Position numbers and translations under genes: made by a program. Under the pieces are notes generated by a model, which was given only the letters and a program-made list of their open reading frames with translations, had not been told where the DNA came from and did not search any database. Positions 15,431 through 35,489 of a stretch of 52,588 nt of DNA are shown here, in pieces. How positions within the stretch are numbered: position 1 is the first letter of the stretch; every line of letters begins with the position of its first letter. The DNA comes from Methanobacteriota archaeon (GTDB lineage Archaea > Thermoplasmatota > Thermoplasmata > RBG-16-68-12 > SOIM01). The DNA lies in the NCBI GenBank assembly GCA_020345725.1, contig CP070767.1, positions 179,215-231,802 on the forward strand, given 5' to 3'.

Positions 15431-15440
15431 AATATAAAGA
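15431..15440 (-). promoter_or_regulatory. TATA-like box (TCTTTATATT on the minus strand) in the only sizeable spacer of the hdrA array
   Basis: The 122-nt gap 15333-15454 contains TTTATAT about 100 nt upstream of the hdrA-N ATG. This may be an internal promoter. Confidence 0.3.
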
Positions 15441-15454
15441 CTACTCTAATTGGC

Positions 15455-15898: not shown

Positions 15899-15901
15899 CC
15901 C

Positions 15902-17551: not shown

Positions 17552-17566
17552 ACACGGCCTGGCTGT

Positions 17567-20500: not shown

Positions 20501-20635
20501 CACTAGGTAGACCTTCAAATCGGTATCTGCAAGATCAAGAGCGCACTGGGTGCCAGAGATTCCTCCGCCAACAACAAGAACAGCCCCGACCTTATCTGAG
20601 ATCCTCTCTATCACCTTCTCTGAGGTCCTCTCCAC
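17567..20635 (-). CDS. hdrA: Double-length HdrA-like flavo-iron-sulfur protein (1022 aa, GTG start)
   Basis: Same two-half architecture as 8272-11289: GGGISGTQ, FPTHDCAMC, CTGCGLCTQRCP, CIGCGICETQC, then VFVCHCGINIGG, ASCTPRTHAP, GGGLSGMT, CVGSRVPERPYCSRICC, FFFEAHMKLRP, CRGCGRCVETC and CKGCGACSVAC. Confidence 0.9.
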   Translation of the reverse strand: MERTSEKVIERISDKVGAVLVVGGGISGTQCALDLADTDLKVYLVDSSPRIGGAMSQLDKTFPTHDCAMCIMAPKLVATGRHHNVELLTNSKVEKIDGEIGHFRVTVKRKVRCVDEEKCTGCGLCTQRCPVEVPDEYNKGLKVRKAIYMKYPQAVPPAHTIDQEACIGCGICETQCEAGAIDFTEEERPIEIDVGAIILAPGFTEFDLKLKREYGYGRYPNVISSLELERMLSPTGPYGGVVLRPSNGEVPENVAFIQCVGSRDVQVGNTYCSSVCCMFAIKEATIAEEHTPGLKSHIFFMDMRAFGKEFDEYYVRAEKEYGLQFTRNQRVASIEENPETHDLTIWYSEKGEMRRKVFNLVVLSVGTDSPKSAQEVAETFGIELNKHDFCETDIFSPLDTKVPGIFVCGAFSSPKDIPDSVSQASGAAAKAMSIVASERGKLIEKKEYPPEIDLTGQEPRIGVFVCHCGINIGGVVDVPGVVEHVKELPNVVHAEANLYTCSQDTQKNIKEKIKEHNLNRVIVASCTPRTHAPLFQSTIMEAGLNAHVFEMANIRDQCSWVHSSLPKEATEKAKLLVSMAVEKSRLLVPLPEIMIEVEKSALVVGGGLSGMTVAQELANQGIKVHLVEKEKDLGGLMKRIHYGLEGEDVQTFLSKLKDSVTGNPLIETYTETQLKDVSGCVGSFDCVTESNGGTKEFRVGTIIVATGGLEYKPTEYLYGQDQRVMTQLEFENMLNESDGMEAKTIAMIQCVGSRVPERPYCSRICCTEAVKNALKAKEVNPESNIYVMFRDMRTYGFREDFYNKAADEGVIFTRYSEEDKPVVEVGQDGSLEVAVLDQILNEEILIKPDILVLSAATVSNPDNVPLSQMLKVPLNKDGFFFEAHMKLRPIDFAADGIFLCGLAHLPKFFEENIAQASGAASRAMTILAKDALEAEATIAVVDEDKCRGCGRCVETCEFNAPELVEREDGTKVSHIVEALCKGCGACSVACCNKSIQMRGFTSDQIIAMMRKASAPATMQEET

Positions 20636-20646
20636 GGATTCTGATG

Positions 20647-21651
20647 CTATTCAACCACCCCCGAAAGCAGTCCTCTTACACAGACCGAGAAGTGGCACAC
20701 GTTGCTTCTTCTCCTCTCGCAGTTGTAACATCTCAATGTAAGCAGCAGTTCCCTCACTATCCATTTCTTTGTCGCTTCATCTACGTCTGGAAGACTGGCA
20801 ATACTCATCTGGATGCTCTCCTTCTGAACCTTCGCCCATAGAGGTAAGGTGGAGATCTCCTGCCCCTCTTCTATCTGGGAAATATACAAAGGCGACGTGC
20901 CTTGGATTTCCGTCATCGTAACAAGTCCTCTATCGCGCAGTAGTACAATGTGCCTCAGAACATCCCTCTCCGGCAGATTAACCCTCTCGGATATCTCTTT
21001 CACAGATTGAGGCTGTCCTTTGGTTGCGAGAAGGACCCTGCATCTCCCATATTCCTCCAATATCGCCTTTTCCACGACTTCGTGGACCTTTCCGTTCGGA
21101 TTCATACGATTGAATGCATTGGGTTTGGTCTCAAGCAGGTGTTCCTTGTTCATCAACAGACTCAGTCTGAAATCGTCGACTGCACTGCGGGCCACATACA
21201 AACCTTCCATTATGTCGATGTCAGGAGCATCACCCGCAACAGGATTAGGTCCCAATTCGGTCACCGTGTTTACGAACTCCGTCACAATCTCTGCAAAAAG
21301 CTTGCCTTCTGAAGCGGACACCCATTCCATTCTCAATCTCTCTGGCTCAAGACCAGTGAGTTCTAGTAGTCTCCTTAGTGTGTCTATTCGCCTCGCTGCG
21401 TGATTGTTCCCCTCTTGATAATGACAATCTCCTGGATGACAACCGCAGATTAGCACTCCATCGGCACCTCTGAGGAAGCCTTCGATAACCACGGCTGGGT
21501 CGACACTACCACTGCACATTACTCTTATGATCCTCAAGTTAGGTGGATAGGTGAATCTGGAGACTCCGGCCAAATCGGCTCCTGCATAAGAGCACCAGTT
21601 GCAGAGGAATCCGACAATCTTGGGAGTGAAACCGTTGTCCTGCTTCTCCAT
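20647..21651 (-). CDS. mvhD: MvhD-domain protein with a winged-helix-like domain and an extra ~70-aa Cys-containing C-terminal extension (334 aa)
   Basis: [21 protein letters not shown] and CGCHPGDCHY. HTH-like SVKEISERVNLPERDVLRHIVLLRDRGLV. The extension, absent from the 257-aa paralogue, ends in CYNCERRRSNVCHFSVC. Confidence 0.8.
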   Translation of the reverse strand: MEKQDNGFTPKIVGFLCNWCSYAGADLAGVSRFTYPPNLRIIRVMCSGSVDPAVVIEGFLRGADGVLICGCHPGDCHYQEGNNHAARRIDTLRRLLELTGLEPERLRMEWVSASEGKLFAEIVTEFVNTVTELGPNPVAGDAPDIDIMEGLYVARSAVDDFRLSLLMNKEHLLETKPNAFNRMNPNGKVHEVVEKAILEEYGRCRVLLATKGQPQSVKEISERVNLPERDVLRHIVLLRDRGLVTMTEIQGTSPLYISQIEEGQEISTLPLWAKVQKESIQMSIASLPDVDEATKKWIVRELLLTLRCYNCERRRSNVCHFSVCVRGLLSGVVE

Positions 21652-21652
21652 C

Positions 21653-24600
21653 TCAGCCCCCCTCTATAGCGGCTGTCAGCTGGGCAATGATTTGGTCGCG
21701 GGAGAAATGCTTCAAGGTGATCGCTCTCTCTGGACATCCTGCTGCACATGTACCACATCCTTTGCACAGCGGTTCTGAGACTTTGGACTTGTTTGTTTCC
21801 GGATCTACTTCTATAGCTCCGAATGGACAGATGAACTCACATGTCTTGCACCCAACACAGAGGTCCTCATTCACGCAAGACACTACGCCCTCCGATTCAA
21901 TCTCGTCCTTGCTTAATATCGTCAAGGCTCTCGCAGCTGCAGCCATCGCCTGGGATATGTTCTCATCCACGAACTTGGGCGACTGGGCCAAACCGCAGAC
22001 AAAGATGCCATCTGTTGCGAAATCTACTGGTCTCAGTTTTGCATGAGCTTCAAGGAAGAACCCATCCTTGCTGAGTGGCACCTTCAGTATCTCGGATAGG
22101 CCATCATTGTCGGGATTCGGCCGAGTTGCGGCGTTCAGAACCAGGAGATCTGGCTTTATGAGGAGGTCAACCATGAGGAATTTGTCCTTTACCCTTACCT
22201 CAAGTGGCTCTCCTTGTGTGACAATCGGTGGGCTATCCTCTTCGAACCGAATGAATATGACACCCTCTTTGCTGGCTTCTTTGTAGTACTTCTCTCGGAA
22301 ACCGTACGTGCGTACGTCCCTGAAGACCACATAGACAGAGCTGTCTGGGAACCTCTTTTTCAATTCGAGTGCATTTCCAATAGCTGTAGTGCAACAGATT
22401 CTGCTACAATTAGGATATTCCTCATTCCTCGAACCCACACACTGTATTATGACCACTTCCTTTGGTGCCTTGAAATCACCTTTGTACATCCTTTCTTCGA
22501 GCTCGAGTTGAGTGATGACTCTGGAATCTTCACCATACAGATACTCCTCGGGCTTGTATTCCACCGCTCCGGTAGCGACAACGATCACACCATGGTCTAT
22601 TTCGCTGCCATCTGATAACCTGCTTTTGAAATTGCCAACATATCCGCTCGTTCTCTCCAGTTCTGTCTTGAGATGAACATGTATCTTTGGGTTGTTCTGG
22701 CAGGCATCGCTCTTCTCCTTCAGAATCGCCTGTGGATCTTCTCCCGTGAGTGAATGGGTGACTCTCCTCATGTTGCCGCCCAGTACATCCTCCTTCTCAA
22801 CTAGATGGACATCAAAACCCTTCTTGGCAATCTCCAAGGAAGCTGTCATGCCACTGAGTCCTCCACCTATCACAAGAGCTGACTTGGTGACGGAATGAGG
22901 GATTTTCTCCAGAGGCCCCAAGAGCCCAGCCTTGGCAACTGCCATACGAACAAGTCTCTTGGCCTTCTTGGTTGCTTCCACGTGATTGTCCGAATGGACC
23001 CAAGAACACTGTTCCCTGATATTGGCCATTTCAAAGAGATAGGGATTTAGTCCACCTTCCCTGATTGTTTCCTGAAAGAGTCCCTCATATGATCTTGGAC
23101 TGCAGGATGCCACTATGACCCTGTTCAGATTGTGTTCCTCTATCCTCTCCCGGATGCTCTGTTGGGTGTCAAGGGAGCAAGTGTAGAGATTGGCTTCGGC
23201 ATGCACAACGTTAGGAAGTGTCTTGGCATACTCCGCCACATCAGGAACATCCACAACTCCACCGATGTTTATGCCGCAGTGACAGATAAAGACGCCCACT
23301 CTGGGCTCGACACCCTCGATATCTTTTTCAGCTGGATATTCCTTCTCTTGAAGGTCATTCTCACTCTTCTCTGGAAGTGAACCGGCCATCGATGCCGCTC
23401 CGCTGGCTTGGGCAACCGTATCGGGTATGTCTCTTGGTCCAGAGAGCATTCCGGATACATAGACTCCGGGAACAGAGGTCTCAAGGGGAGTGAACATGCC
23501 GGTTTCACAGAAGTCAAATTCGTTAAGTGAGATGCCCAACATCTTGGAGATGTCCTCAATATTCTCCGGCGGCTCTAGGCCAACAGAAAGGACAACAAGG
23601 TCGAAGACCTCTTCTCGAATCTCCCCCAACTCTGAGTAGGTGATGACAAGTCTATCATCATCGAGGGTCTCCCCCACGGATGCAATTCGGTTATTCCGTA
23701 TTATCCCGACTCCATACTCTTCTTCGGCCCTGACTCGGTAATCCTCGAACTCCTTTCCAAATGCTCTCATGTCCATACAGAATATGCGCGATCGGATGTC
23801 TGGATGGTGGTCATGTGCATCGATTGCCTCCTTTAAGGCGTACATGCAACATACCGATGAACAGTAGATGCCTCCATAGACTTCGCTCCGAGAACCTACG
23901 CACTGTATGAAGGCGATATTCCTGGGAGGCTTTCCATCTGAAGGTCTCTGAATCTCCCCCATTGTGGGTCCTGTGGCGCTCAACATCCTCTCCAATTCGA
24001 GGCTGGTGATTACATTCGGGAGAACACCGTATCCATATTCAGAAATCGCTCTGGGATTGTATGGCTTGGCACCGAACCCAATGATGATCGACTCGACATT
24101 GAGAGTGACTTCTTCAGGCTTCTGTTCAAAGTCGATTGCCTCGGCTTCGCAGAATCTCTGACAAGCCCGGCACTTTCCAGTCCGGAAATAGGTGCAGTTT
24201 TTCTCATCAATCACAAAGGTAGTGGGTATAGCTTGCGGATACATTCTGTAGGCGGCTTTTCTCTCAGACTGGTCCATGTCGAACTCATTTGGCACCTTTA
24301 CTGGGCACTTCTCCGCGCAAACACCACAGCCTACGCACTTCTTGTCGTCCACGTACCGGGGGTGATTAAGAACGGTGACTCGAAAATCACCTTTCTGTCC
24401 CTCGACATGTGTAATTTCGGAGCTCATCATCAGTTGTATGTTGGGATGTCTTCCCACCTCCACGAGCTTGGGAGAAAGGATGCACATAGCACAGTCGTTC
24501 GTTGGGAAGGCCTTGTCCAGTTGAGCCATTCTTCCCCCCAGGGCCGGGGCTTTTTCGACAATGGTGACGCGAACGCCTGCATTTGCCAGGTCCAATGCTG

Positions 24601-24664
24601 CCTGAATGCCGGCTATGCCACCTCCAACTATCAGGACTCCCTGTTCCATTGAACATGACTCCAT
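21653..24664 (-). CDS. hdrA: Double-length HdrA-like flavo-iron-sulfur protein (1003 aa); first gene of the array
   Basis: GGGIAGIQ, FPTNDCAMC, CVGCGVCAEKCP, CRACQRFCE, then VFICHCGINIGG, ASCSPRSYEG, GGGLSGMT, CVGSRNEEYPNCSRICC, FFLEAHAKLRP, CVGCKTCEFICP and CKGCGTCAAGCP. Confidence 0.9.
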   Translation of the reverse strand: MESCSMEQGVLIVGGGIAGIQAALDLANAGVRVTIVEKAPALGGRMAQLDKAFPTNDCAMCILSPKLVEVGRHPNIQLMMSSEITHVEGQKGDFRVTVLNHPRYVDDKKCVGCGVCAEKCPVKVPNEFDMDQSERKAAYRMYPQAIPTTFVIDEKNCTYFRTGKCRACQRFCEAEAIDFEQKPEEVTLNVESIIIGFGAKPYNPRAISEYGYGVLPNVITSLELERMLSATGPTMGEIQRPSDGKPPRNIAFIQCVGSRSEVYGGIYCSSVCCMYALKEAIDAHDHHPDIRSRIFCMDMRAFGKEFEDYRVRAEEEYGVGIIRNNRIASVGETLDDDRLVITYSELGEIREEVFDLVVLSVGLEPPENIEDISKMLGISLNEFDFCETGMFTPLETSVPGVYVSGMLSGPRDIPDTVAQASGAASMAGSLPEKSENDLQEKEYPAEKDIEGVEPRVGVFICHCGINIGGVVDVPDVAEYAKTLPNVVHAEANLYTCSLDTQQSIRERIEEHNLNRVIVASCSPRSYEGLFQETIREGGLNPYLFEMANIREQCSWVHSDNHVEATKKAKRLVRMAVAKAGLLGPLEKIPHSVTKSALVIGGGLSGMTASLEIAKKGFDVHLVEKEDVLGGNMRRVTHSLTGEDPQAILKEKSDACQNNPKIHVHLKTELERTSGYVGNFKSRLSDGSEIDHGVIVVATGAVEYKPEEYLYGEDSRVITQLELEERMYKGDFKAPKEVVIIQCVGSRNEEYPNCSRICCTTAIGNALELKKRFPDSSVYVVFRDVRTYGFREKYYKEASKEGVIFIRFEEDSPPIVTQGEPLEVRVKDKFLMVDLLIKPDLLVLNAATRPNPDNDGLSEILKVPLSKDGFFLEAHAKLRPVDFATDGIFVCGLAQSPKFVDENISQAMAAAARALTILSKDEIESEGVVSCVNEDLCVGCKTCEFICPFGAIEVDPETNKSKVSEPLCKGCGTCAAGCPERAITLKHFSRDQIIAQLTAAIEGG

Positions 24665-24914: not shown

Positions 24915-25007
24915 ATGACAGAATACGGCCCCAAAGACGAGTCCTCCTATGGGAGTTGCTTGGGTTGTGACGTTTGCAGCGGATCGAGTTGTCCATTAGA
25001 GAATTAG
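24915..25007 (+). CDS. Cys-rich mini-protein, 30 aa: MTEYGPKDESSYGSCLGCDVCSGSSCPLEN
   Basis: Not in the ORF track (<60 aa). It has an ATG preceded by GGAGA at a 5-nt spacing, its own BRE/TATA-like box and T-tract terminators downstream. Motif is C-x2-C-x2-C-x4-C-P. Confidence 0.5.
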   Translation: MTEYGPKDESSYGSCLGCDVCSGSSCPLEN

Positions 25008-25057: not shown

Positions 25058-26134
25058 CTAGAGCAGCGTGGTTAGCGCCGTTTTGGCTCTTTTGGAAATG
25101 TCTTCGGAAACAGAAAGTTTGACTGCAGGGATTCTGGTCCTTCCCTCACTGGTTGTCTGAAAATGCTCCTTCTGGTGTACGTCAATCTCGTAGTATGGCT
25201 CGTCCTTGTACGCGTATTTGATATCCGCAATTGGTCCGCCGGTCTCCAGTATCATCTTTGCCTTCTGAACCCTTGGTACGGTGGTATAGGACATGTTGGG
25301 GCATCTCATATTGATTGAGTAGATGGAAAGGTCCGTTTCTCTCTTTAGCCTGTCCACAACGCCCTCCACAGTGCCGACCAACCATGTTGTCTTGTCGGAT
25401 TCCTTGGGGGTCCGTACGAGTCCACCAGTTCCCCCGAAGTAAGCATTCTTCTCAAAACCGAACTTGCGCAGAGGAGTATCGACCTCCGCGTGCATCTCCA
25501 ATCCTAGATTCTCACCGTGAAGCTTCACCAGCTCATCGTACGTCTCCATGAAGAAATCTGCCGGAACGTTGACGTGACTTGGGCAGAAGACGTCATTCGT
25601 TGGTATAGATATGACTTCGAAATCCGGATATTTGGGCTGGAGAACGTCCCTCATCCAGTTGTTCACATTGACATCGCCGATAAACGCAACTCTGCCCTTT
25701 CCGTTTCTTTCTTTGGCTATTCTCTCAGCAACATTCAGGCCGACCGTGCCGTTGTACACTCCATCGCACTCAGCCTTGATTGAGGAAGGTGTATTGATGT
25801 AGGCCAGTGTCAAATCAGGGTTGAGCTTCCTCGCCTCTTCTACATGGTTCACTGCAACGATATCAGTGTCTCTCTGCTTCTTGATCATGGGGCAGCGAGG
25901 TTTGTCTATGACACCGTCCTTAACCGTGATCTCGGGTATGAAGACCTCCACTTCTCCATCAGCCATGTTGTACAGATCCTCGGCCATATAGAGGACCCCG
26001 CAGAATAGGACTTTCTTTCTCTTGAACCTGGGAGCGTTCCTGACAATCGCGGTTGTCCCATACACAAAATCTGAGATTTCCTGGGTTGGACCATCCTGAT
26101 AATTGTGAGAAATTACCACCAGAGGTTCCGCCAT
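25058..26134 (-). CDS. nadA: Quinolinate synthase (NadA)-like [4Fe-4S] protein, divergent (358 aa from ATG 26134; the ORF-track N-terminal 44 aa overlap the upstream gene)
   Basis: Collinear with archaeal NadA as I remember it: VVISHNYQ, ISDFVYG, VLFCGVLYMAEDL, three Cys in RCPM / VFCPSH / MRCPNM, GGTGGL, and a C-terminal ISKRAKTALTTLL. Contains insertions relative to ~300-aa NadA. Confidence 0.65.
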   Translation of the reverse strand: MAEPLVVISHNYQDGPTQEISDFVYGTTAIVRNAPRFKRKKVLFCGVLYMAEDLYNMADGEVEVFIPEITVKDGVIDKPRCPMIKKQRDTDIVAVNHVEEARKLNPDLTLAYINTPSSIKAECDGVYNGTVGLNVAERIAKERNGKGRVAFIGDVNVNNWMRDVLQPKYPDFEVISIPTNDVFCPSHVNVPADFFMETYDELVKLHGENLGLEMHAEVDTPLRKFGFEKNAYFGGTGGLVRTPKESDKTTWLVGTVEGVVDRLKRETDLSIYSINMRCPNMSYTTVPRVQKAKMILETGGPIADIKYAYKDEPYYEIDVHQKEHFQTTSEGRTRIPAVKLSVSEDISKRAKTALTTLL

Positions 26135-26145
26135 TACCTTGTCTC

Positions 26146-27000
26146 CTACTTCTTCTCCCCCAAGAGGTACTTCATCGCTCCTACCACATCGCCCACCTTT
26201 GCTCCCCAGGGAACCATCGCCATCTTTCCTTCCTTGTCGAATCCACCGGTCTGGAGCTCGCAGCATTTTATCAAAGTCGGGACTCCTGATTTCTTTGCGA
26301 TATTCTTTGGGCAGATGTCTATGAGTGGCAGCTCCTTCCCGCAGAGATCCTTTGCCACTCTTCTTGAGAGATCACAGCCAACGATTGTTGCATCTGCTAT
26401 CTTGGGATTCTTGTCGATGTAGAGACACTTCTTCTTCGGGACCTTGGCTCCTCCCGCTTCACAGCCGAAGAGGATTTCTTTTGTCTTTGCTTTCTTTGCG
26501 AGCATCCTCATGTCGACAATTTCCTCTTTGATTCTGACAGGAGTCTTGACTTCTTCAGTCTTCAAGGCCATTTCAACGAGAGATGTAAGTTTAGCAGGAA
26601 ATGGTGGAACAACATCAACGACCCTGATATCCTTGAATCGGAGTTTGTGAATGAACGAGACGTGCTCGAATAGTCCCTTTACAACCACGGTGTCCTTGCG
26701 AGATCTGGATGCCCTTCTTGCAAGCAATGGTATGCTCAGAACGTCTACTCCCGGGTCCTCAATGAATGCAGTATTCTTTGGCAGGGAGATTATCTTGATT
26801 GACAAGATCTTGCTGAACAGTGCCTTCGTTTCTTTCTTTCTCAGCTCAACCACTGCGAACTGCCTCTTGTTTTTCAACACGACGTACTTGGTTCTTCTAT
26901 ATGCTCTCTTGCCTTTCAGTTTCTTATTGATTTCCTTCGCATCCAGTTTGAAATCGACATCCCAAACTGACACATCTCGGCAATGTTCTGGAATTATCAT
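26146..27000 (-). CDS. Hypothetical basic protein (284 aa from ATG 27000) with a Cys-rich C-terminal third
   Basis: The ATG overlaps the stop of the radical SAM gene (ATGA at 26997-27000). The C-terminal region has FGCEAGG, KKCLY, VGCD, DLCGK, DICPK and KCCELQTGG. No family recognised. Confidence 0.6.
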   Translation of the reverse strand: MIIPEHCRDVSVWDVDFKLDAKEINKKLKGKRAYRRTKYVVLKNKRQFAVVELRKKETKALFSKILSIKIISLPKNTAFIEDPGVDVLSIPLLARRASRSRKDTVVVKGLFEHVSFIHKLRFKDIRVVDVVPPFPAKLTSLVEMALKTEEVKTPVRIKEEIVDMRMLAKKAKTKEILFGCEAGGAKVPKKKCLYIDKNPKIADATIVGCDLSRRVAKDLCGKELPLIDICPKNIAKKSGVPTLIKCCELQTGGFDKEGKMAMVPWGAKVGDVVGAMKYLLGEKK

Positions 27001-28013
27001 TGACTCACCAACGGACACAGTGGATCGGTCGCGCAAAGATCTCCAGTATTCTCGTAAGCGGACGCTCTACAGCCTCCTCCACAGTAGACTAGATATTTAC
27101 AATTCATGCAAGTGTCTGAAAGACGGTCTATTGACCTCATCTTATCCAAGAATGCGTTGTCATTCCAAATATCCGCGAATTTCTGCTCACGGAGATTCCC
27201 TAGCTTCACAGAGAAGTATCCACACGGCTTCACCCACCCATCTGGGGTTATTGCACAGAGTTGCTTTCCGCAGACACATCTGGATCCAACGAAGGATTTG
27301 TCAGCCTTGTTTTCTGGTAGGTCTTTTCCAAGGAAATGGAAACTGGGAGTTATCAGCTGAAATGGAATGGTCAGGTTTCTTCTCTTCTCTTCTATGTATG
27401 AGAAAGCTTCTCTCATTGCTTCCGGATCGGGAATGTACTTCTCGTTCTCGCTGCCCCTGCCTACACTGACAAACGGTCTTACGCGAAAAGCATCCACTCC
27501 GAGACCAGTCACGAAGTCGATTATATCTGGAACTTCCTTGTGATTCTGCTGTGTTATTGTGAGTCTGACTGCCGTCTTGATGCCTTCTCCCTCCGCGGCC
27601 TTGATAGCCCTTATCGCCCGTTCGAATGCTCCCTTCATCCCCCTGAAGGCGTCATGAGTCTCTCCAAGTCCGTCTATGCTGACCTGTATCTCTGATACAC
27701 CTCTTTCCTTGAGTTTGGATGCTAACTCCTCGTCAAGCAGGATCCCATTTGTGAACACCCTGTATCTTATTGAATTCTCATTCAAGAATGATCCCAGCTC
27801 CAGAACTAAGTCCTTCCTGCAGAGCGGTTCTCCACCAGTCATTGTGAGAAGCTTCATTCCGTTCTCCTTCAAATCCAGAACCATGCTCTTCGCTTCTTCC
27901 ACGCTGAGCTCATCAGGTAGCGGTTGTCGTGCCTTCGCAAAACAATGGGGGCAGCTGAGGTTGCATGCCAGTGTTACCTGGTAGCGAACGTCTCGGATGG
28001 ACCACATATCCAT
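26997..28013 (-). CDS. Radical SAM enzyme with a C-terminal SPASM-type auxiliary-cluster domain (338 aa)
   Basis: Canonical CNLSCPHC (CX3CX2C) at residues 17-24, GGEPL, and a C-terminal Cys cluster CVCGKQLC...KPCGY...CMNCKYLVYCGGGCRASAY typical of SPASM/twitch maturases (anSME/PqqE/AhbD-like). Confidence 0.85.
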   Translation of the reverse strand: MDMWSIRDVRYQVTLACNLSCPHCFAKARQPLPDELSVEEAKSMVLDLKENGMKLLTMTGGEPLCRKDLVLELGSFLNENSIRYRVFTNGILLDEELASKLKERGVSEIQVSIDGLGETHDAFRGMKGAFERAIRAIKAAEGEGIKTAVRLTITQQNHKEVPDIIDFVTGLGVDAFRVRPFVSVGRGSENEKYIPDPEAMREAFSYIEEKRRNLTIPFQLITPSFHFLGKDLPENKADKSFVGSRCVCGKQLCAITPDGWVKPCGYFSVKLGNLREQKFADIWNDNAFLDKMRSIDRLSDTCMNCKYLVYCGGGCRASAYENTGDLCATDPLCPLVSQ

Positions 28014-28031: not shown

Positions 28032-28040
28032 ATTATAAAA
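28032..28040 (-). promoter_or_regulatory. TATA box (TTTTATAAT on the minus strand) ~23 nt upstream of the radical SAM ATG
   Basis: The spacing implies a leaderless or near-leaderless transcript for the rSAM / unknown / nadA-like operon. Confidence 0.4.
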
Positions 28041-28106: not shown

Positions 28107-28610
28107 CTATTTTGCCCAGGGGCAGTTCTGTTTGTTGGGGCAGTCCTTACATTCATAGTACTTGTGGAAGAGAGGGAGTATCACAAAACCCACAATAACA
28201 AAGGACAGCGTCAAGGCCAGGAAGAACCATGAAAAATCGGTGAACAGCAAGAAGAGGCTGCCCAACAGGGGATAGATCCACACTAAGGATAGGAACGGAA
28301 TATATGTCTTGAACATCCTCTGGAACTGGGAGATATCTCTCCTTTTGAAGAGTTTGGAGGCAATCGTTCCATATCCAGAAGGACAGCGTCCGCCTCCATA
28401 CGAAGGACAGTAGGTACAGACATACCTGAGAAACAGGACAAGAGCCAGGACTATGAACGACAGGTAGAGAATACCGAAGAGAATCCCCACATATGATAGT
28501 ATTATGAATCCAAGAACGTAGGTGGTCAGACTCGGGATGTTGGCAATGACTGTTTCTTTTACTGTGGACCTTACCGCATGGTGTCCTATTGAAAATGCAT
28601 ACTTCCCCAT
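28107..28610 (-). CDS. Integral membrane protein (167 aa, ~4 TM) with two Cys-rich loops
   Basis: Hydrophobic segments (LTTYVLGFIILSYVGILFGILYLSFIVLALVLFL, FLSLVWIYPLLGSLFLLF, FFLALTLSFVIVGFVILPLF). Cys loops: CTYCPSYGGGRCPSGYG and a C-terminal YECKDCPNKQNCPW. Preferred over the overlapping alternative-frame ORF 28153-28620. Confidence 0.6.
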   Translation of the reverse strand: MGKYAFSIGHHAVRSTVKETVIANIPSLTTYVLGFIILSYVGILFGILYLSFIVLALVLFLRYVCTYCPSYGGGRCPSGYGTIASKLFKRRDISQFQRMFKTYIPFLSLVWIYPLLGSLFLLFTDFSWFFLALTLSFVIVGFVILPLFHKYYECKDCPNKQNCPWAK

Positions 28611-28672: not shown

Positions 28673-31600
28673 CTACTCCGGTTCTTGTTCCTTCTTCTTC
28701 CTCATCAATAGCAGGAGTGCTATCACTACAATTATGATGATGATTGCTGCTGCCAGAATGGGGATAATGGGTAGACCCGAAGGCTGTTCTGCCCTCTCAG
28801 TGATGTCTATCTCCCAGTCAGTATCTGGACGTCTGCCAATGTTATCCAGCGTATCGTTCGCCTCTATGTAGTACCAAACCCCATCAGTTGTAGCATCAGA
28901 GCCTGGAATTGTCGCTGTGAATGTATCTGAAGCGGACGGGGTCATTGCAATCCGAATATACGAACCAGCTTGTGATCTCTTGTAGAATAAGGAAGCTGTG
29001 CTTACCCCATTGCTGTCTGTTATGGTGGCTTCCACAGGTATGTCTTCACCAGCGGTTCCAGACGAGATAGCCTGATGATTTATCGTCGGAGGCGTGCTGT
29101 CGATTTCAAATGACCATACTGTTACATTGACATTCGAGGGCGAGGAAATGTCCTCAACTGTAAGTCGGACGTTGTGCGAGCCATCTGGCAGGGATGCTGA
29201 CAGAGTAAATGTCACTTGGTCCGCTGTGATCACCGCGGAACCTGTGACGTCAATTCCATCCACTTCGATGACGATGCTAGACAAGTCAACACCAGAAGCG
29301 TCTTCATAACCCGCACGTATGGTAGGTGTGTTGTCACTTGTTAATGAGTTGTTGGTGGGTTGGAGGGATGTGATGTTGGGAGCCAGTGTATCCACTATGA
29401 ACCACCAAGTTGCCGATGACATTATGCTCATAGGTGAATTGTCCCTGACCTCCAGGTATGCATTGTGTACCCCTTCTGTCAGTGGTGTTGCTGGCGTATA
29501 CGATATCTGTGAAGATGTGACAGTTGCAGATGATGTGAAGTCGATCCCATCAATCATAAGGATTACTCCTGCTGTGTCTATTCCAGACTCGTCGCTGTAG
29601 TTGGCGCCTATGACAGGCAGATTGTCACTTATGATGGACTGATTCAACGGTTGCATATCCATAATCTCAGGTGCCACTGGATTGACCAAGAACCACCATG
29701 TTACCGTTGCCCTGTTTTGCGGTGCAGACTGATCGCCAACCTCCAATCGGACATCATGCCGCCCTTCGGAAAGCGTAGATGCTGGCATATATGAAACGTA
29801 GTTCGGTGTCACCGTTGCCAGAGGTGTGACATCTATGAGATCAACGAATATTGTGACATCGGTTACGTTAATCCCAGAATCATCACTGTAGCTAGTTCTA
29901 ATAACTGGGGTGGAGTCCAATATTGTCGATTCATTTGCAGGCTGCTGTATCGTGATCAAGGGGGGAGTGGTGTCCACCAGGAACCACCAAGTCTTCGAAG
30001 CCACATTGTGATTCGCGGAATCGTCCTGAACTTCTAGATATGCATCGTGGAGACCTTCCGTCAAGGGTACGAGTGGTGTGTAAATAATGTCCAGCGGTGT
30101 TATTGTTGCCAGAGACGTTACGTCTATAGAATCTACTTCCAGAACCACAGTGGTAATATCTATCCCGGATGAATCCGCGTAGTCGGCTCTTATCACGGGG
30201 CTGGCGTCGCCTATGATAGATTCGTTGATTGGCTGCATGTTTGTGATTGATGGCGGTATCGTATCTACAATCGTTGTGTCAACATTGAACCACCATGTCT
30301 TTACTGCCGTGTTCATGGGTGTGGAGCTGTCATTGACTTGCAGAGAAACATTGTGCCTGCCGTTTGGCAATGGGACGACAGGCGTATACATCACTCCGGT
30401 AGGTGTGATTGTGGAACTGGCAGTCACATCTACTGTGTCCAACTTCAACATCACTGAGCCTGTATCTATCCCTGAAGGATCACTGTAGCTGGCGCTTATG
30501 GTTGGCGTGTCATCTCCGACTGTAGATCCATTGTTTGGCAGTAAGTTGGTAATGTCTGGTGGTTGTGTATCTACAGTGAACTGCCACGTGACCACCGCCT
30601 TGTTCTGGTTGATGGAATCGTCCCTGACCTCCAGATAAACGTCATGGATGCCATCAGAAAGAGGAAGAGCTGGTATGTAGGTCACATTGGAATCAGTAAC
30701 AATGGCCGAAGGTGTCCCATCAATACCATCAACCATTAGAAGAACGCTGGTGGTGTTGATGCCGGAAACATCGCTGTAGTTGGCGCCTATGATTGGCATG
30801 GCGTTTCCGATTACCGATTGGTTTATGGGCAGTAACCCAGAAATGACTGGTGGCGTTGTCTCCACAGGGGGGATTGTGAATGAGTTGTTGCTCTTATCCC
30901 AGTTGGTGCGAAGTGCAGAATCTGTTACGTTAACCCTGACATAGCAGTCAGAAGAGGGAGTGTTTGGAACCGTCCAAAGAAAGGTTCCGTCATTCGATTC
31001 CCCATCAGCGATTTGTGAATACTGTCCAGTTATTCCATCTATCGAATATTCGATTCGAATGGTTAGAGGAGCAGTTCCACCTGAGGCAGTCCAATTGATT
31101 GCGTGTTGAGTGCCGACCTTCCAGATCTCACCAGCATTGGGATCTTCCACCTCAACCTTCAATGGAGGAGATGTCTCATCGTTTATCCATACCTGAACAC
31201 CAAAACCCTCTCCAGCAGCGCCAATGTCCATGTATCCATCATCGTTAATATCACCTGCAGCCACACCTATGACCTTACCCACAGGCAGTGTTGCAGATGC
31301 ATCAGTCCAGGTGGACCCTCCGTCACCTTTCCATATCCTGATGCCATTTCCCCCGTAGCCAGCCGCCAATATGTCAGGGTATTTGTCCCCAACTAGGTCA
31401 GCCAGAATCACTCCATAGTACAGATCGTTAGTAGGTAGACCATTAGAGGCAAGAGTCCAATTGCTCGTGCCATCTCCCAGCCATGCCTTGATCCCGTGAC
31501 CGCCCATGTCCATCGAGGAGACAATGTCCAGGTTGCCGTCGAGATCGATGTCTCCCATGGTCACTCCGTTCCATTGATCGGTCCAGGGCAGTCCATTAGA

Positions 31601-32335
31601 CGCCTCTGTCCATATGCCTGTCCCGTCTCCAAGCCAAACATGAAGACCAGCACCTGCGGCAGCAAGATCGGTATTATTGTCATTGTTAACATCATCCATC
31701 CACACACTGAAGTAACTTCCACTTGTTGGAAGGTTTGTCGAGGCTTGCGTCCAGACACCTGCTCCGTTCCCAGTGAAAACCTTCACACCACCAAACACAT
31801 CATTCCCAACTGCAAGATCCAAGTTGTCATCATTGTTTATGTCAGCAAGGAATAGGCCTGTATTCCAAACCTCTCCAGGCAAGCCTGTGGAGGCAGGAGT
31901 CCAGGAACCTGCGCCATTGCCGGTCCAAACACCGACAGTGCCAGGACCATAGTCATAATTGGAGGCTGCAAGGTCCAGATCTCCATCGTTGTTGATATCA
32001 CCCAGACTCACGCCAGCATCGAAGGTCGTGCTTGGAAGGCCAGTGGAGGCAGGGGACCAGTTACCCGCTCCATCCCCAGTCCATACACGTACTCCTGAGT
32101 AGCCTGCTGTAGCAATGTCCAAGTTGCTGTCATTATTGATGTCACCGAACCAAATGCTATGCTGACTTGAGGCTCCTGGCAAACCAGCTGAAGCGGATAC
32201 AAAGCCAGTCCCTATCGGGTCCTCTTCTGAATGAGCTTGAACATCCATGGAAGTGAGCAAGTTCCCAAACGATGCCCCAATTAGAACCGCGGTCAAGGCG
32301 AGTGGGAACCAGCGAGTTGTTGACTTGAATTTCAA
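28673..32335 (-). CDS. Large surface protein (1220 aa, TTG start): signal peptide, FG-GAP/VCBS-type (integrin-alpha-like) beta-propeller repeats, six Ig-like repeats, C-terminal TM anchor
   Basis: N-terminal hydrophobic signal. About 7 repeats of GDINNDxxLDL...VWxGxGxGxW (aa ~60-385). Six ~97-aa repeats (aa 494-1081). C-terminus LPIIPILAAAIIIIIVVIALLLLMRKKKEQEPE. Confidence 0.8.
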   Translation of the reverse strand: MKFKSTTRWFPLALTAVLIGASFGNLLTSMDVQAHSEEDPIGTGFVSASAGLPGASSQHSIWFGDINNDSNLDIATAGYSGVRVWTGDGAGNWSPASTGLPSTTFDAGVSLGDINNDGDLDLAASNYDYGPGTVGVWTGNGAGSWTPASTGLPGEVWNTGLFLADINNDDNLDLAVGNDVFGGVKVFTGNGAGVWTQASTNLPTSGSYFSVWMDDVNNDNNTDLAAAGAGLHVWLGDGTGIWTEASNGLPWTDQWNGVTMGDIDLDGNLDIVSSMDMGGHGIKAWLGDGTSNWTLASNGLPTNDLYYGVILADLVGDKYPDILAAGYGGNGIRIWKGDGGSTWTDASATLPVGKVIGVAAGDINDDGYMDIGAAGEGFGVQVWINDETSPPLKVEVEDPNAGEIWKVGTQHAINWTASGGTAPLTIRIEYSIDGITGQYSQIADGESNDGTFLWTVPNTPSSDCYVRVNVTDSALRTNWDKSNNSFTIPPVETTPPVISGLLPINQSVIGNAMPIIGANYSDVSGINTTSVLLMVDGIDGTPSAIVTDSNVTYIPALPLSDGIHDVYLEVRDDSINQNKAVVTWQFTVDTQPPDITNLLPNNGSTVGDDTPTISASYSDPSGIDTGSVMLKLDTVDVTASSTITPTGVMYTPVVPLPNGRHNVSLQVNDSSTPMNTAVKTWWFNVDTTIVDTIPPSITNMQPINESIIGDASPVIRADYADSSGIDITTVVLEVDSIDVTSLATITPLDIIYTPLVPLTEGLHDAYLEVQDDSANHNVASKTWWFLVDTTPPLITIQQPANESTILDSTPVIRTSYSDDSGINVTDVTIFVDLIDVTPLATVTPNYVSYMPASTLSEGRHDVRLEVGDQSAPQNRATVTWWFLVNPVAPEIMDMQPLNQSIISDNLPVIGANYSDESGIDTAGVILMIDGIDFTSSATVTSSQISYTPATPLTEGVHNAYLEVRDNSPMSIMSSATWWFIVDTLAPNITSLQPTNNSLTSDNTPTIRAGYEDASGVDLSSIVIEVDGIDVTGSAVITADQVTFTLSASLPDGSHNVRLTVEDISSPSNVNVTVWSFEIDSTPPTINHQAISSGTAGEDIPVEATITDSNGVSTASLFYKRSQAGSYIRIAMTPSASDTFTATIPGSDATTDGVWYYIEANDTLDNIGRRPDTDWEIDITERAEQPSGLPIIPILAAAIIIIIVVIALLLLMRKKKEQEPE
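29093..30856 (-). repeat. Six tandem coding repeats (~291-306 nt each) of an Ig-like domain
   Basis: Consensus PPxITNxxPxNxSxIxDxxPxIxAxYSDxSGIDxxxVxLxVDxIDVTxxATxTxxxxxYTPxxPLxEGxHxxYLEVxDxSxxxNxAxxTWWFxVDT. Copies are diverged at the DNA level. Confidence 0.85.
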
Positions 32336-32348
32336 ACGAACACCGTGA

Positions 32349-35300
32349 TTATTTTCGAGCAGCTATTGCGATCGGACTATCACACTCTGGACATATTGTG
32401 TCATTCATTCCGAGTTCATGTCCACAATTCTCGCAAGTATCAGGGGCCTCTGCACCGGCAGGTGTTTCCTCTCTCTTTCTTCTCTTGAGTGCAAGGAAGA
32501 GTAGAAGTATCAAGAATACGGCCGCCACAAGGATTGCCAGTATCCACCAGGGGAAAGCACCCACTTCCTGCGCGCTCGCCGTAACCCTGACCGTCATTGT
32601 GTCTGTGCCGGTATTTCCAGCCATGTCCTTGATCGTGAGAGTGACTTCGTACTCGCCAACTTCTCCGAACCTGAACTGGCCAGAACAGTCAGGGATTTCG
32701 AACTCCTCATTGAGATATGGGAAAGTCCAACTGCAATTATTGGGGTCTATTCCGCTTCCATCGATTCCGTCGTCCGAACCGCTGGAGTCAAATACCACAA
32801 TGTGCCCGACACTAATCTCAACGTCATCACCAGCATCGGCATTGGGGGACTGTGTGTCCAGAAAGACAGTGATATATCCGATAGTTCCCACATTACCAAC
32901 CCTGTCGATGCTCCCGAAGTATATCCTATGCTCTCCTTCAGTCATCGTTCCCGCGACGAGTGGACCCGAATAGGTTGATGTGCAGGCAGTGTCGTCTATT
33001 CCGTAACAAATGGAAGATACTCCAGATCCTTCACCATCGTCTGCAGTTATTGAGATCGTTGCCAGAGCGGTGTTGATGTAGTTTGTTTCTGTGCTATCAT
33101 ATCCTGGTATTACGCTCGTGGGTGCAGTGTTGTCCAGGTACAATATCTCGGTAACCTCGATCTCCTCCGTGCCCAACTCATCAGTGCTCTTGAAAAGGAC
33201 TTCTCTCTCCCCGTCATCTCCAGACAATTGGAGAGGTACACTGAACGCGGTCCAGTCTTCTATTACCACTCCGTCCTTCTTGATCTGATACCAAGTGGTT
33301 CCAGCTCCACTACCAGCTCCATCTTCAACTGTGAAGCTGATTGGCGTCATCGAGCTAACGTATGTAATGCTTGGAGCAGTGTGGTTTGGCTCACCAGTCA
33401 CCATTTGTGTGGTAGGGGCGGTGTTATCCAAATATACCTGGAATGTTCTCTCGCTTTCCTCGTTGTTGACATTGTCCTTGCTCTTGACGATAACATCCCA
33501 CAAACCGTCCTCACCCGTGAGGTAGATAGCTCCACCGGTGTAATGAGTCCAGTCAACTTCTATGATTCCGTCCTTCTTGATTTGGTATTGGGTGGAACTC
33601 TCTCCGCTTCCCAATCCATCATCAGCTGCGAAATAAATCGGGGTCTGGGAAGTGAGATAGGTAGTTCCAGAAGCATTGTGGTGTGGCGCACCTACACTCA
33701 TGTCGGATACAGGTGGGCTATTGTCCAAGTAGATATGTTCTGTCTTTGCAAGTTCCTCGTTGCCAAGTGTATCCCTGGCTTTGAATTTGACATATATCAA
33801 TCCGTCACTCTTGGAGCTCGAGATCGCAAAATTGCCTGTGTACGGGCTATATAGCGGCTCAGACTCTCCAAAGGCGTAGTAGAGATACTCGATGGATTCC
33901 ACTCCAACACCCGAATCGTCACTCGATGTCAGGTTGAGCGGTGTAAGCGAAGTTACATATGTGTTGGTACTGATTGGATCCGTGTACTGTGGGAACAAGA
34001 TGTTGAGTGAAGTGGTTGGAGCAGTTGTATCGATAGCGAAGGACCATGTGGCAGTAGATACGAGCGAATTGGTGTCAGCAACGGAGATGTAGACTTCATG
34101 GTCGCCATCATTCAAGGGTATTGCTGGTGTGAATTGAATGTCTCCTGAGGTCTTTATCGACATCGAGGTGACGTTCATTGAATCCACCTCCAGCACAACG
34201 CTTCCAAGATCAATCCCAGAAGTGTCAGCATAATCTGCCCCAATTGTTGGCTGGTTGCTGTTTATGATTGAGAGATGATCTGGCTGCAGGTTTGATATTA
34301 TCGGAGGTTGTGTGTCAACTATGAACCACCACGTCTCCACTGCTGTGTTTTTGGGGTTGGAATTGTCGCTTACCTGAAGATACACATCATGTACTCCATC
34401 AAGAAGTGGAACAAGGGGAACATAGGATACATCACCTGAAGTCACAGTAGCACTTGAAGTCACATCGATTGAATCCACCTTCAGGATCACACTTCCAGTG
34501 TCGATCCCTGACACATCGAAATAGAATGCGCTGATGGCGGGAGTCGTTTCAGTTGTAGAAGATTCATTTGCAGGCTGCGGGTTCATGATTGCAGGGGGTA
34601 ACGTGTCCACCACGAACCACCACGTTGCAGAGGCCTTGTTCTGATTGGAGGAATCGTCCATTACTTCCAGATACACGTCATGCGTGCCTTCCGTCAGTGG
34701 AATCAAAGGTGTATACGAGATGCCTGTGGCTGTTATTGTGGCATCGGCAGTGACGTCTACGCTGTCCACTTCCATCCGAACACTGCTGGTGTCGACTCCA
34801 GATTCATCCCAATATTCGGCACTGATAACCGGCACGTTTTCGCCTATGGTCGATTGGTTGGTGGGCAACGTGTTGTTGATCAGCGGTGGGGTGTAGTCAA
34901 TAGTCACTCCCGTTATGTCAACCATATCAATCCAATGAGTTATTGGCCCTGTAATGTGGTTGTAGAATCCCATCGCTACGTAGATCTCTCCCGTAGGTCC
35001 CGACGTGAACGTGTTCAGGTAACTGTACTCATACCATCCCACAGTCTGCCCGCTCATTCCGATCACAGTGAAGTCCGGATAGTCCTCAGGATCTGTCGTT
35101 CCCGCATACGCCAGTACTTCAAGAGGCGACCCAGTTGATTCGCTGTACAACTGGAAATTCACGCCAATGTCCAATGAGGTGCTTGCAGGAGCCTGGACAA
35201 TTCTCTCAATCCATACTGAAAGCTGCGGATAAGGTGGCGTGGGAAGCCCATGACAGAACAATTCAACTGAATAGGATCCGTCAAAAGCATATAAACTGGA

Positions 35301-35489
35301 TATCGCGACGTTGAAATATGCCGGGTCATAGTTGAAATCACCAACCCAATCGCCAAAACCGCCTTCAAAACTCTCGGATATCTGTGCCGAGCTGATCATC
35401 GAACCGTGCTGAAGCACTGTCAGTAGAACCAAGACACCAAGAACTGCAGAGGCTCTCCTCCGTGTTTGTACGCCCTTTCTTGTCATCAT
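32349..35489 (-). CDS. Large surface protein (1046 aa): signal peptide, N-terminal domain, three copies of the same Ig-like repeat, four copies of a second Ig-like repeat, PKD-like domain, TM helix, cytoplasmic zinc-ribbon tail
   Basis: Signal MMTRKGVQTRRRASAVLGVLVLLTVL. TM FPWWILAILVAAVFLILLLFLAL followed by KRRKREE. Tail CENCGHELGMNDTICPEC (CX2C-X10-CX2C). Located 13 nt upstream of the 1220-aa gene. Confidence 0.8.
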   Translation of the reverse strand: MMTRKGVQTRRRASAVLGVLVLLTVLQHGSMISSAQISESFEGGFGDWVGDFNYDPAYFNVAISSLYAFDGSYSVELFCHGLPTPPYPQLSVWIERIVQAPASTSLDIGVNFQLYSESTGSPLEVLAYAGTTDPEDYPDFTVIGMSGQTVGWYEYSYLNTFTSGPTGEIYVAMGFYNHITGPITHWIDMVDITGVTIDYTPPLINNTLPTNQSTIGENVPVISAEYWDESGVDTSSVRMEVDSVDVTADATITATGISYTPLIPLTEGTHDVYLEVMDDSSNQNKASATWWFVVDTLPPAIMNPQPANESSTTETTPAISAFYFDVSGIDTGSVILKVDSIDVTSSATVTSGDVSYVPLVPLLDGVHDVYLQVSDNSNPKNTAVETWWFIVDTQPPIISNLQPDHLSIINSNQPTIGADYADTSGIDLGSVVLEVDSMNVTSMSIKTSGDIQFTPAIPLNDGDHEVYISVADTNSLVSTATWSFAIDTTAPTTSLNILFPQYTDPISTNTYVTSLTPLNLTSSDDSGVGVESIEYLYYAFGESEPLYSPYTGNFAISSSKSDGLIYVKFKARDTLGNEELAKTEHIYLDNSPPVSDMSVGAPHHNASGTTYLTSQTPIYFAADDGLGSGESSTQYQIKKDGIIEVDWTHYTGGAIYLTGEDGLWDVIVKSKDNVNNEESERTFQVYLDNTAPTTQMVTGEPNHTAPSITYVSSMTPISFTVEDGAGSGAGTTWYQIKKDGVVIEDWTAFSVPLQLSGDDGEREVLFKSTDELGTEEIEVTEILYLDNTAPTSVIPGYDSTETNYINTALATISITADDGEGSGVSSICYGIDDTACTSTYSGPLVAGTMTEGEHRIYFGSIDRVGNVGTIGYITVFLDTQSPNADAGDDVEISVGHIVVFDSSGSDDGIDGSGIDPNNCSWTFPYLNEEFEIPDCSGQFRFGEVGEYEVTLTIKDMAGNTGTDTMTVRVTASAQEVGAFPWWILAILVAAVFLILLLFLALKRRKREETPAGAEAPDTCENCGHELGMNDTICPECDSPIAIAARK
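32850..34022 (-). repeat. Four tandem coding repeats (~97 aa) of a second Ig-like domain type
   Basis: aa 490-880. Recurrent pattern TYxTSxTPIxFxAxDGxGSGxxxxxYQIKKDG...W..Y.......EDG...V..KS.DxxxNEE......YLDNTAP. Confidence 0.7.
34023..34892 (-). repeat. Three tandem coding repeats of the same ~97-aa Ig-like domain found in the 1220-aa protein
   Basis: aa 200-489: ...YTPLIPLTEGTHDVYLEVMDDSSNQNKASATWWFVVDT..., matching the consensus of 29093-30856. Confidence 0.8.

Follow-up and report, generated by a model that had tools for sequence, protein, structure and literature searches.

Three adjoining genes on the minus strand of a 52,588-nucleotide stretch of an archaeal genome (Methanobacteriota archaeon, GTDB class Thermoplasmata; assembly GCA_020345725.1, contig CP070767.1, positions 179,215 to 231,802; here called the window) encode a radical S-adenosylmethionine (SAM) enzyme with a SPASM domain (gene 1), a Cys-rich Fe-S protein of the XcbA family (gene 2) and a paralogue of the quinolinate synthase NadA (gene 3). 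The genome is a metagenome-assembled genome (MAG) whose genes carry JSV43_ locus tags. We give a probability of about one half to the reading that this trio is a conserved archaeal biosynthetic module for coenzyme M (CoM, 2-mercaptoethanesulfonate) or a very similar sulfonated thiol. The evidence for this reading includes the family of gene 2, whose characterised member acts in CoM synthesis, the conservation of the trio in two archaeal classes, and its presence in the ethane-oxidising GoM-Arc1 archaea, which depend on CoM and scored negative for the established archaeal CoM genes. The first-pass annotation of this DNA had set the trio apart from a NAD operon and proposed a cofactor or modification pathway of unknown product, a view upheld by the conserved linkage, by the low scores of gene 3 on the NadA models and by the second nadA gene found in Ca. 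Ethanoperedens.

Anatomy and conservation of the three-gene unit

Gene 1 (positions 26997-28013, minus strand) was defined by its open reading frame (ORF) together with Pfam and NCBIfam models and encodes 338 amino acids. Gene 2 (26146-27000, minus strand; Pfam and NCBIfam) encodes 284 amino acids and gene 3 (25058-26134, minus strand; Pfam and fold search) 358 amino acids, both counted from ATG. The stop codon of gene 1 and the start codon of gene 2 share an ATGA at 26997-27000, and the TAG of gene 2 is separated from the ATG of gene 3 by an 11-nt spacer, GAGACAAGGTA, at 26135-26145. The coordinates that the first-pass annotation had given for the three minus-strand genes, their ATGA overlap and their 11-nt gap were all reproduced. 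The same annotation had placed a promoter-like box about 23 nt from the first ATG and suggested a leaderless-type transcript. The TATA-like box, TTTTATAAT (28032-28040, minus strand), was recognised from the sequence and from comparison of related loci. Of 14 such loci, all except L028 have a similar A/T-rich box about 25 nt 5' of an ATGTGG start that is itself conserved. In the window the box lies 18 nt 5' of the ATG at 28013 and 24 nt 5' of the ATG at 28007. Because the spacing between box and ATGTGG start is kept in 13 of 14 loci, translation of gene 1 probably begins at the second ATG (28007), and judging from the sequence a leaderless or very short-leader transcript of the trio is plausible.

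Related loci were gathered through homologues of gene 2, through homologues of gene 3 and by a NadA-like alignment scan of one genome per species. The trio was found in the same order (radical SAM, XcbA-like, NadA-like) in 17 further loci, two of which end before gene 3. In all 17 the junction between genes 1 and 2 is 0 nt or an overlap, and the gap between genes 2 and 3 ranges from -26 to +46 nt. The neighbourhoods of the gene 2 homologues therefore preserve the linkage to the radical SAM and NadA-like genes, and since order and tight junction are kept in loci from two archaeal classes, the linkage is beyond chance. What flanks the trio varies from lineage to lineage, which leaves the three genes as the conserved unit. 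A scan of the genome collection with two peptide patterns, which can miss divergent members, returned 10 loci, seven in Thermoplasmata and three in GoM-Arc1-type Methanosarcinales, with none in any other group. The three GoM-Arc1 loci belong to Ca. Methanoperedenaceae archaeon GB37, to ex4572_44 and to one uncultured MAG, and their proteins are 51-56% (gene 1), 37-39% (gene 2) and 49-56% (gene 3) identical to those of the window. Across the 17 loci the orthologues of gene 1 are 51-87% identical to the window protein. Searches of the literature for DUF7714, for CoM biosynthesis with NadA, radical SAM or XcbA, for CoM biosynthesis in Ethanoperedens and for related MAGs returned no description of the trio.

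Families and likely chemistry of the three proteins

Profile models place gene 1 among the radical SAM/SPASM enzymes, gene 2 in the XcbA family and gene 3 in the NadA fold under the equivalog cut-offs. Gene 2 scores 228 bits on the NCBIfam model NF052538 ('XcbA family', cut-off 150) and 219.8 bits on the Pfam model PF24830 (DUF7714, cut-off 25), and the GoM-Arc1 orthologue also exceeds the XcbA-family cut-off, with 208 bits. Membership in this family indicates a specific product class, of the CoM type. The XcbA protein of Xanthobacter autotrophicus, which has a redox-active [2Fe-2S] cluster, turns sulfoethanethioaldehyde into CoM in vitro, the last step of the bacterial pathway (PMC9457059); both the reaction and the cluster are known for the Xanthobacter protein only.

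The gene 2 protein is basic (pI 9.8) and contains KCCELQTGG, as the first-pass annotation had noted. That annotation had counted eight Cys in the last third of the protein, whereas eight is the total, seven of which (C180-C247) lie there. The four positions C180, C209, C230 and C246 show no variation among 58 members from archaea and bacteria and are common to the actinobacterial ones; C247 is kept in at least 90%. Alignments of the family (58 and 14 sequences) contain no stretch with enough conservation to serve in a genome scan. The fold had likewise been described as unrecognised; the family can now be named, as the protein passes the XcbA and DUF7714 models. The AlphaFold2 (AF2) model has a pLDDT of 96.6, yet a fold search against the PDB gave no meaningful match (best TM about 0.2) and a sequence search of the PDB returned nothing. 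The XcbA fold is thus without a solved relative, and structure therefore gives no mechanistic hint.

Comparison with the XcbA-E pathway of X. autotrophicus Py2 (Wu et al. 2022, PMC9457059) shows a common family, the same invariant cysteines and the same proposed terminal step from thioaldehyde to thiol. The trio differs in lacking ComA/XcbB, the aspartase/fumarase-type lyases XcbC and XcbD and the pyridoxal phosphate (PLP) enzyme XcbE. Unlike XcbA in Xanthobacter, gene 2 has a radical SAM/SPASM enzyme and a NadA paralogue as its fixed partners, and its hosts are strictly anaerobic archaea. Neither the window nor any of the 17 archaeal trio loci shows the association with xcbB (comA), xcbC/D and xcbE. 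That association does occur in Carbonactinospora, where a bona fide CoM cluster has, in this order, ComA, DUF7714/XcbA, a lyase, a PLP enzyme and a further lyase, beside 2-KPCC-like and short-chain dehydrogenase/reductase genes. XcbA-like genes also stand alone, with neither a radical SAM nor a NadA-like gene, in Ca. Methanomethylophilaceae-type and related digester MAGs (L021-L023, L029-L030). The setting there is conserved and consists of a NUDIX or AAA gene, the XcbA-like gene, a TPR gene, PyrK, PyrD and a SufS-like cysteine desulfurase, and the solo gene might be an alternative terminal CoM synthase in Methanomethylophilaceae-type methanogens.

Gene 1 matches the Pfam families Radical_SAM (101 bits) and SPASM (41.9 bits, cut-off 21.5). 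Its CNLSCPHC occupies residues 17-24, with C17, C21 and C24 as the CX3CX2C cysteines, and ten Cys lie between residues 246 and 333, in agreement with the motif and the SPASM-like C-terminal Cys cluster that had been noticed at first pass. Among the NCBIfam models it scores highest on AhbD, with 235 bits, and next on NirJ2, with 215 bits, both with whole-protein coverage and both under their 500-bit cut-offs. Gene 1 resembles AhbD, AhbC and NirJ, and also MftC, which score highest over the full length, in combining a radical SAM core and a full SPASM domain with no N-terminal extension. It differs from the haem and haem d1 enzymes in scoring under half of the equivalog cut-offs and in its setting, as no tetrapyrrole genes (ahb, nir) were found near it. 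SkfB, AlbA and StsB, which mature peptides, align with gene 1 only from about their residue 94-116 onward, showing that gene 1 is without their N-terminal peptide-binding region of about 100 amino acids. AhbD, NirJ and MftC set a precedent for small molecules being decarboxylated, or cleaved at a C-C bond, by radical chemistry, and gene 1, as an AhbD/NirJ-like protein closest to such SPASM enzymes, itself looks like an enzyme for small molecules.

Gene 3 matches the Pfam family NadA with 90.5 bits and falls far under the cut-offs of the NadA equivalogs (87.3 bits against 294 for NF006878, 62.9 against 262.9 for TIGR00550). It aligns, with insertions, to the NadA proteins of T. maritima and P. 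horikoshii and contains HNYQ, CPM, CPSH and CPNM, as the first-pass annotation had proposed; its C81, C184 and C278 align with the cluster Cys of NadA. The AF2 model (pLDDT 94) was matched by Foldseek to NadA structures (4P3X, 5KTN and others) with TM 0.77-0.80 at 20-22% sequence identity. In common with NadA, gene 3 has a fold of three domains, three Cys that ligate a site-differentiated [4Fe-4S] cluster, and most of the active site. It is set apart by an overall identity of about 20-25%, by the insertions, by a C-terminal extension of about 65 amino acids, by the sub-cut-off scores, and by an extra invariant Cys45 together with a large set of family-specific invariant residues.

Nearly the whole catalytic set of NadA is retained, in H10, N11, Y12, T27, Y112, N114, H187, H215, E217 and T236. 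Quinolinate formation depends on Y21 of T. maritima NadA (TmNadA; numbering inferred from a 7-residue tag offset). The window protein has Tyr at the equivalent position, as do 22 of 25 members of the family, whereas P0038, P0042 and P0044 have Phe. As predicted from these residues, the core fits phosphate-elimination and dehydration chemistry at the unique Fe site. No nadB- or nadC-like ORF was found among the annotated ORFs of the window, as had been remarked at first pass, or in the flanks of related loci; unlike NadA, gene 3 thus has no nadB/nadC partner, and a canonical-size nadA coexists with it in Ca. Ethanoperedens. Two further NadA-fold proteins (P0071, P0072), 32-35% identical to gene 3 and encoded beside a DNA methylase and a dCTP-deaminase-like gene, were treated as a separate family. 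Distant NadA-fold proteins in L024-L027, with the same 32-35% identity to gene 3, adjoin an N6/N4 DNA methyltransferase and a dCTP-deaminase-like gene, a context possibly of nucleotide or DNA modification.

A proposed coenzyme M-type product and its alternatives

CoM is indispensable for methanogenesis and anaerobic alkane oxidation. Ca. Ethanoperedens thermophilum, an ethane oxidiser of the GoM-Arc1 group, produces ethyl-CoM, whose identity was confirmed with an authentic standard (PMC7175092). Chadwick et al. 2025 looked for CoM genes throughout the GTDB archaea, and according to Table S1 of that report mcrB and mcrG are present in all seven listed genomes of f__EX4572-44 (the genera Ethanoperedens and EX4572-44) and mcrA in six (PMC12068725). 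The same table scores all seven genomes 0 for comA, comB, comC, comD/E, cysteate synthase, MMP16 and COG1900, three of them being 91-99% complete. The same authors count three known CoM pathways and do not refer to archaeal XcbA homologues (PMC12068725). The proposed module would share with the archaeal pathways (ComA-ComB-ComC or cysteate synthase, ComDE, ComF/MMP16) its end product, and it shares with them an archaeal setting that contains methyl- or alkyl-CoM reductase (MCR/ACR) and heterodisulfide reductase (Hdr). It differs in that none of their enzyme families occurs in the trio and that the GoM-Arc1 archaea bearing it scored negative for all of them (PMC12068725, Table S1). No ComA match was found in the window or in the archaeal loci, and no known CoM-pathway Pfam families were found among the neighbours.

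In the closed GB50 genome of Ca. Ethanoperedens the trio corresponds to FHEFKHOI_00052 ('pqqE_2'), 00053 (hypothetical) and 00054 ('nadA_1'), followed by hdrC_1, hdrB_1 and hdrA_1, and the trio and these hdr genes are all transcribed in ethane culture. Transcript levels of the trio are moderate and housekeeping-like, about 170-320 normalised units against thousands for catabolic genes. A separate gene of canonical size, nadA_2 (912 bp), lies elsewhere in the genome, indicating that the NadA-like gene of the trio is a paralogue and not the sole NadA. The first-pass annotation had named the opposite case, with gene 3 as sole nadA and with no conserved linkage; what we found is 17 linked loci, this second nadA and a score of 87 bits against 294.

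In the pathway that we propose, the NadA paralogue and the radical SAM enzyme would make a sulfonated C2 carbonyl or thiocarbonyl precursor. The open Fe site of the site-differentiated [4Fe-4S] cluster of the NadA paralogue would form the C-SO3 bond, sulfite displacing the phosphate of a C3 phosphate ester similar to dihydroxyacetone phosphate (DHAP) or phosphoenolpyruvate, and an isomerisation or dehydration would then give a C3 sulfonated carbonyl compound. Such a step would parallel the initial half of the NadA reaction, where the phosphate of DHAP gives way to an enamine. The radical SAM enzyme would then take this compound down to the C2 level, as sulfoacetaldehyde or the corresponding thio compound, through an oxidative decarboxylation or a radical C-C cleavage like those of AhbD, NirJ or MftC. 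The last step, the reduction of sulfoethanethioaldehyde to CoM that Xanthobacter XcbA performs, would fall to the XcbA-like protein. The adjacent Hdr would use the product, as a CoM-type heterodisulfide, or supply low-potential electrons. We infer both the product and every step, and each step assignment, taken singly, is held with much lower confidence than the CoM-type product. More tentative than the product, and clearly short of even odds, is the proposal that the module is a fourth, independent CoM route that supplies GoM-Arc1 and also operates in Hdr-rich Thermoplasmata possibly without MCR.

Variant loci bear on the division of labour within the trio. In L004 and L005 CysH (253 bits, cut-off 154) replaces XcbA, and the radical SAM and NadA-like genes, respectively 53% and 60% identical to those of the window, form a divergent pair. 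In L006 the NadA-like gene is accompanied by a CysH gene (163 bits, cut-off 154), by one for an ATP-grasp enzyme and by one for an aldehyde dehydrogenase whose top matches are lactaldehyde, sulfoacetaldehyde and phosphonoacetaldehyde dehydrogenases. The Phe equivalent to Y21 occurs in this CysH-linked clade (L004-L006). CysH reduces 3'-phosphoadenosine 5'-phosphosulfate or adenosine 5'-phosphosulfate and makes sulfite, which is the sulfur donor in all known sulfonate-forming steps of CoM synthesis. Since the radical SAM/NadA-like pair occurs with CysH in the absence of XcbA, and XcbA occurs alone, the data suggest two sub-modules: radical SAM enzyme and NadA paralogue for a sulfite-dependent precursor, and XcbA for a terminal thiol-forming reduction. 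The L004 variant lies at 6053-9065, and the L006 genes (377-5277) lie inside a polysaccharide cluster; the CysH-linked variants may be a route to a sulfonated acid decorating glycans.

Several observations weigh against a CoM-type product. The absence calls for GoM-Arc1 come from another group's hidden Markov model (HMM) or KEGG orthology screen, in which divergent genes could be missed, and related basal Thermoplasmata are reported to be non-methanogenic, with Hdr acting on an unknown heterodisulfide. The assignment of gene 2 to the XcbA family rests on a 'subfamily' model, with 33-35% identity to the bacterial members. The window and its 10-kb flanks hold no obvious sulfite-adding enzyme of a known type, and for this reason the role given to the NadA paralogue is wholly inferred. 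The linkage to Hdr is absent in L009, L013, L015, L017 and L028. The near-complete NadA catalytic set of gene 3 could equally mean a quinolinate-like ring-forming reaction, and in L028 a LarE gene (623-1426, 304 bits against a cut-off of 150) lies directly 5' of the trio, hinting at other thiolation chemistry.

The catalytic set and the LarE gene are also what favours a different, non-CoM cofactor, for instance a pyridine-derived thiol or thiocarboxylate, which we consider unlikely. On this view a pyridine dicarboxylate ring would be made by the NadA paralogue and modified by the radical SAM enzyme, a C=S group would be the target of reduction by the XcbA-like protein, and Hdr would be the source of electrons. 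LarE is an ATP-dependent sacrificial sulfur transferase acting on a pyridine dicarboxylate nucleotide, and the lineage of the window may lack MCR. However, LarE is found in only one of 18 loci, and the linkage of the radical SAM/NadA-like pair to CysH and an aldehyde dehydrogenase indicates sulfite and small-aldehyde chemistry. The sole characterised XcbA acts in CoM synthesis, GoM-Arc1 needs CoM and scored negative for the known pathway genes, and the Y21 equivalent, needed for quinolinate, is Phe in three family members; these too argue for a CoM-type product over a pyridine-derived one.

Alternatively, the trio could be catabolic, an organosulfonate or organosulfur redox complex that exchanges electrons with the Hdr genes in, for example, sulfonate or thiol breakdown, which we hold to be improbable. 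Three Fe-S enzymes do stand beside large Hdr/Mvh arrays, and Hdr-like complexes of non-methanogens handle unknown sulfur compounds. In the window the array (8272-24664, minus strand; Pfam and NCBIfam) lies downstream of the trio, outside its transcript, and is context to it. It holds four HdrA-like genes with MvhD-like and HdrB/C-like genes. Three of its HdrA-like proteins have about 1000 amino acids, each with two FAD/NAD(P)-binding (HdrA-type) regions, shorter ones having 653 and 435, and MvhD-like domains occur alone (11291-12067), fused to a helix-turn-helix domain (20647-21651) or fused to an HdrC/HdrB-like module (15902-17551). Separately, an HdrB and an HdrC gene (2897-4283), with an Mvh-type hydrogenase alongside, score above the cut-offs of the CoB-CoM heterodisulfide reductase equivalogs.

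HdrA-like genes follow the trio also in L001, L002, L011 and L012, and in the GoM-Arc1 locus L018 HdrC, HdrB and an HdrA-MvhD fusion follow it co-directionally, with ORFs of matching sizes in L019. In view of the five loci without it, the Hdr link is recurrent, not obligatory. Its recurrence in two archaeal classes, together with the HdrB and HdrC of the window that exceed the CoB-CoM reductase cut-offs, speaks for the CoM-type reading, and the lack of adjacency in many loci argues against a catabolic complex. So do the moderate transcript levels in Ca. Ethanoperedens, far below those of catabolic genes, and the linkage to CysH, which fits supply of sulfite and not its release; stoichiometric use of SAM would, moreover, be unusual in catabolism.

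A peptide product is, if anything, a shade less probable still. The SPASM enzyme would mature a small Cys-rich peptide, as a sactipeptide- or ranthipeptide-like ribosomally synthesised and post-translationally modified peptide (RiPP) or a small Fe-S peptide, with genes 2 and 3 as accessory tailoring enzymes. SPASM radical SAM enzymes often cross-link Cys-rich peptides, and a candidate is at hand: a mini-gene (24915-25007, plus strand, convergent with gene 3) encodes a 30-amino-acid peptide that ends in a ferredoxin-type C-x2-C-x2-C-x4-C-P. Homologues of 29-40 amino acids lie 3-50 nt past the gene 3 stop in all ten Thermoplasmata loci that reach that far (L011 11221-11129, L001 10104-10012, L013 6283-6167, L009 5760-5644 and others), so that with the window a four-Cys peptide adjoins the trio in 11 of 11. 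Their N-terminus is variable and their C-terminal CxxCxxCx(3-4)CP invariant. Hdr follows the trio in two lineages and the mini-gene is kept in all Thermoplasmata loci; the first-pass annotation, which had singled out both as suggestive neighbours, was justified on each count.

The mini-gene is, however, restricted to Thermoplasmata, missing from the three GoM-Arc1 loci, from L004-L006 and from L028, which retain the radical SAM and NadA-like genes. It has its own TATA-like box and is convergent with the trio. The motif is that of a standard ferredoxin (CxxCxxCxxxCP), the peptide giving weak matches to ferredoxin modules and no match to any RiPP precursor family. Gene 1 has small-molecule enzymes as its top matches, and no PqqD-like gene was seen near the trio. 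The peptide-maturation option is thus weakened because the radical SAM enzyme is without the N-terminal peptide-binding domain of SkfB, AlbA and StsB and because the mini-gene is absent from GoM-Arc1 loci that bear the trio. By its sequence and distribution, the mini-gene appears to be an accessory member of the module in Thermoplasmata, and its peptide could dimerise around clusters as a 'half-ferredoxin', or carry electrons or sulfur for the module.

Gene 3 could simply serve NAD synthesis as a divergent quinolinate synthase amid unrelated Fe-S proteins, in line with its fold, its motifs and its database name ('quinolinate synthase NadA'). This is very improbable given its equivalog scores (87 bits against 294, 63 against 263), its family-own invariant residues including Cys45, its strict linkage to the radical SAM gene across two classes, the lack of nadB or nadC nearby and the separate canonical-size nadA of Ca. 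Ethanoperedens.

Neighbouring genes and possible meaning for CoM biology

Directly 5' of gene 1 lies a gene for a Cys-rich membrane protein of 167 amino acids (28107-28610, minus strand) with the motifs CTYCPSYGGGRCPSGYG and YYECKDCPNKQNCPW, which matches no Pfam or NCBIfam family. Of the related loci, only L002, L011 and L012 have it in this place (58-83% identity), and its membership of the module is peripheral and uncertain. In the metagenomic locus L028 an aldehyde:ferredoxin oxidoreductase gene lies convergent with the trio, downstream of it.

Further upstream, and divergent from the trio, is an MSMEG_0568-type block (35698-41255) encoding an MSMEG_0568-family radical SAM protein, an AIR-synthase-like protein, GNAT and OsmC proteins, an MSMEG_0565-family glycosyltransferase and a TfrB/HdrD-like protein. 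With 364.4 bits the AIR-synthase-like protein comes just under the cut-off (365) for 'methanogenesis marker 2'. The block occurs also in L007 (1-5669), L011 (1692-7238), L015 (1208-6744) and L009 (1-1321); several Thermoplasmata thus keep it immediately 5' of the trio, to which it may be functionally linked. Between trio and block the window carries two large surface-protein genes (28673-35489, minus strand), one for a protein of 1220 amino acids with FG-GAP repeats and one for a PKD/Ig-like protein of 1046 amino acids. The pair is present also in L001 and L012 and looks like an insertion into a conserved neighbourhood, since in L011 and L015 the MSMEG_0568-type block directly abuts the trio region.

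At the other end of the window, beside HdrB/HdrC and the Mvh-type hydrogenase, lie genes for large and small subunits of the aconitase family and for an isopropylmalate/isocitrate-type dehydrogenase (11-2880, plus strand, and 2897-7812). The top equivalogs are HacA (514 bits against 550), HacB2 (191 against 230) and AksF2 (362 against 540). Homoaconitase and homoisocitrate dehydrogenase of methanogens act in coenzyme B precursor synthesis; as all scores here are under the cut-offs, leucine or lysine synthesis is equally possible for these genes.

The cultured ethane oxidisers make ethyl-CoM, yet the known archaeal CoM genes went undetected in published screens. The trio is a concrete, clonable three-gene candidate for their route to CoM, joining an XcbA-family protein to two families, a NadA paralogue and an AhbD-like radical SAM enzyme, never before implicated in CoM chemistry. 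If the trio does make a CoM-type thiol, it would represent new chemistry for two well-studied folds, those of NadA and of AhbD-type radical SAM enzymes, and would make it easier to judge from a genome whether a methanogen or alkanotroph is a CoM auxotroph. It would also offer a clue to which thiol serves the many Hdr complexes of Thermoplasmata that are not methanogens, with CoM or a close analogue as the long-sought thiol substrate of Hdr outside alkane metabolism.

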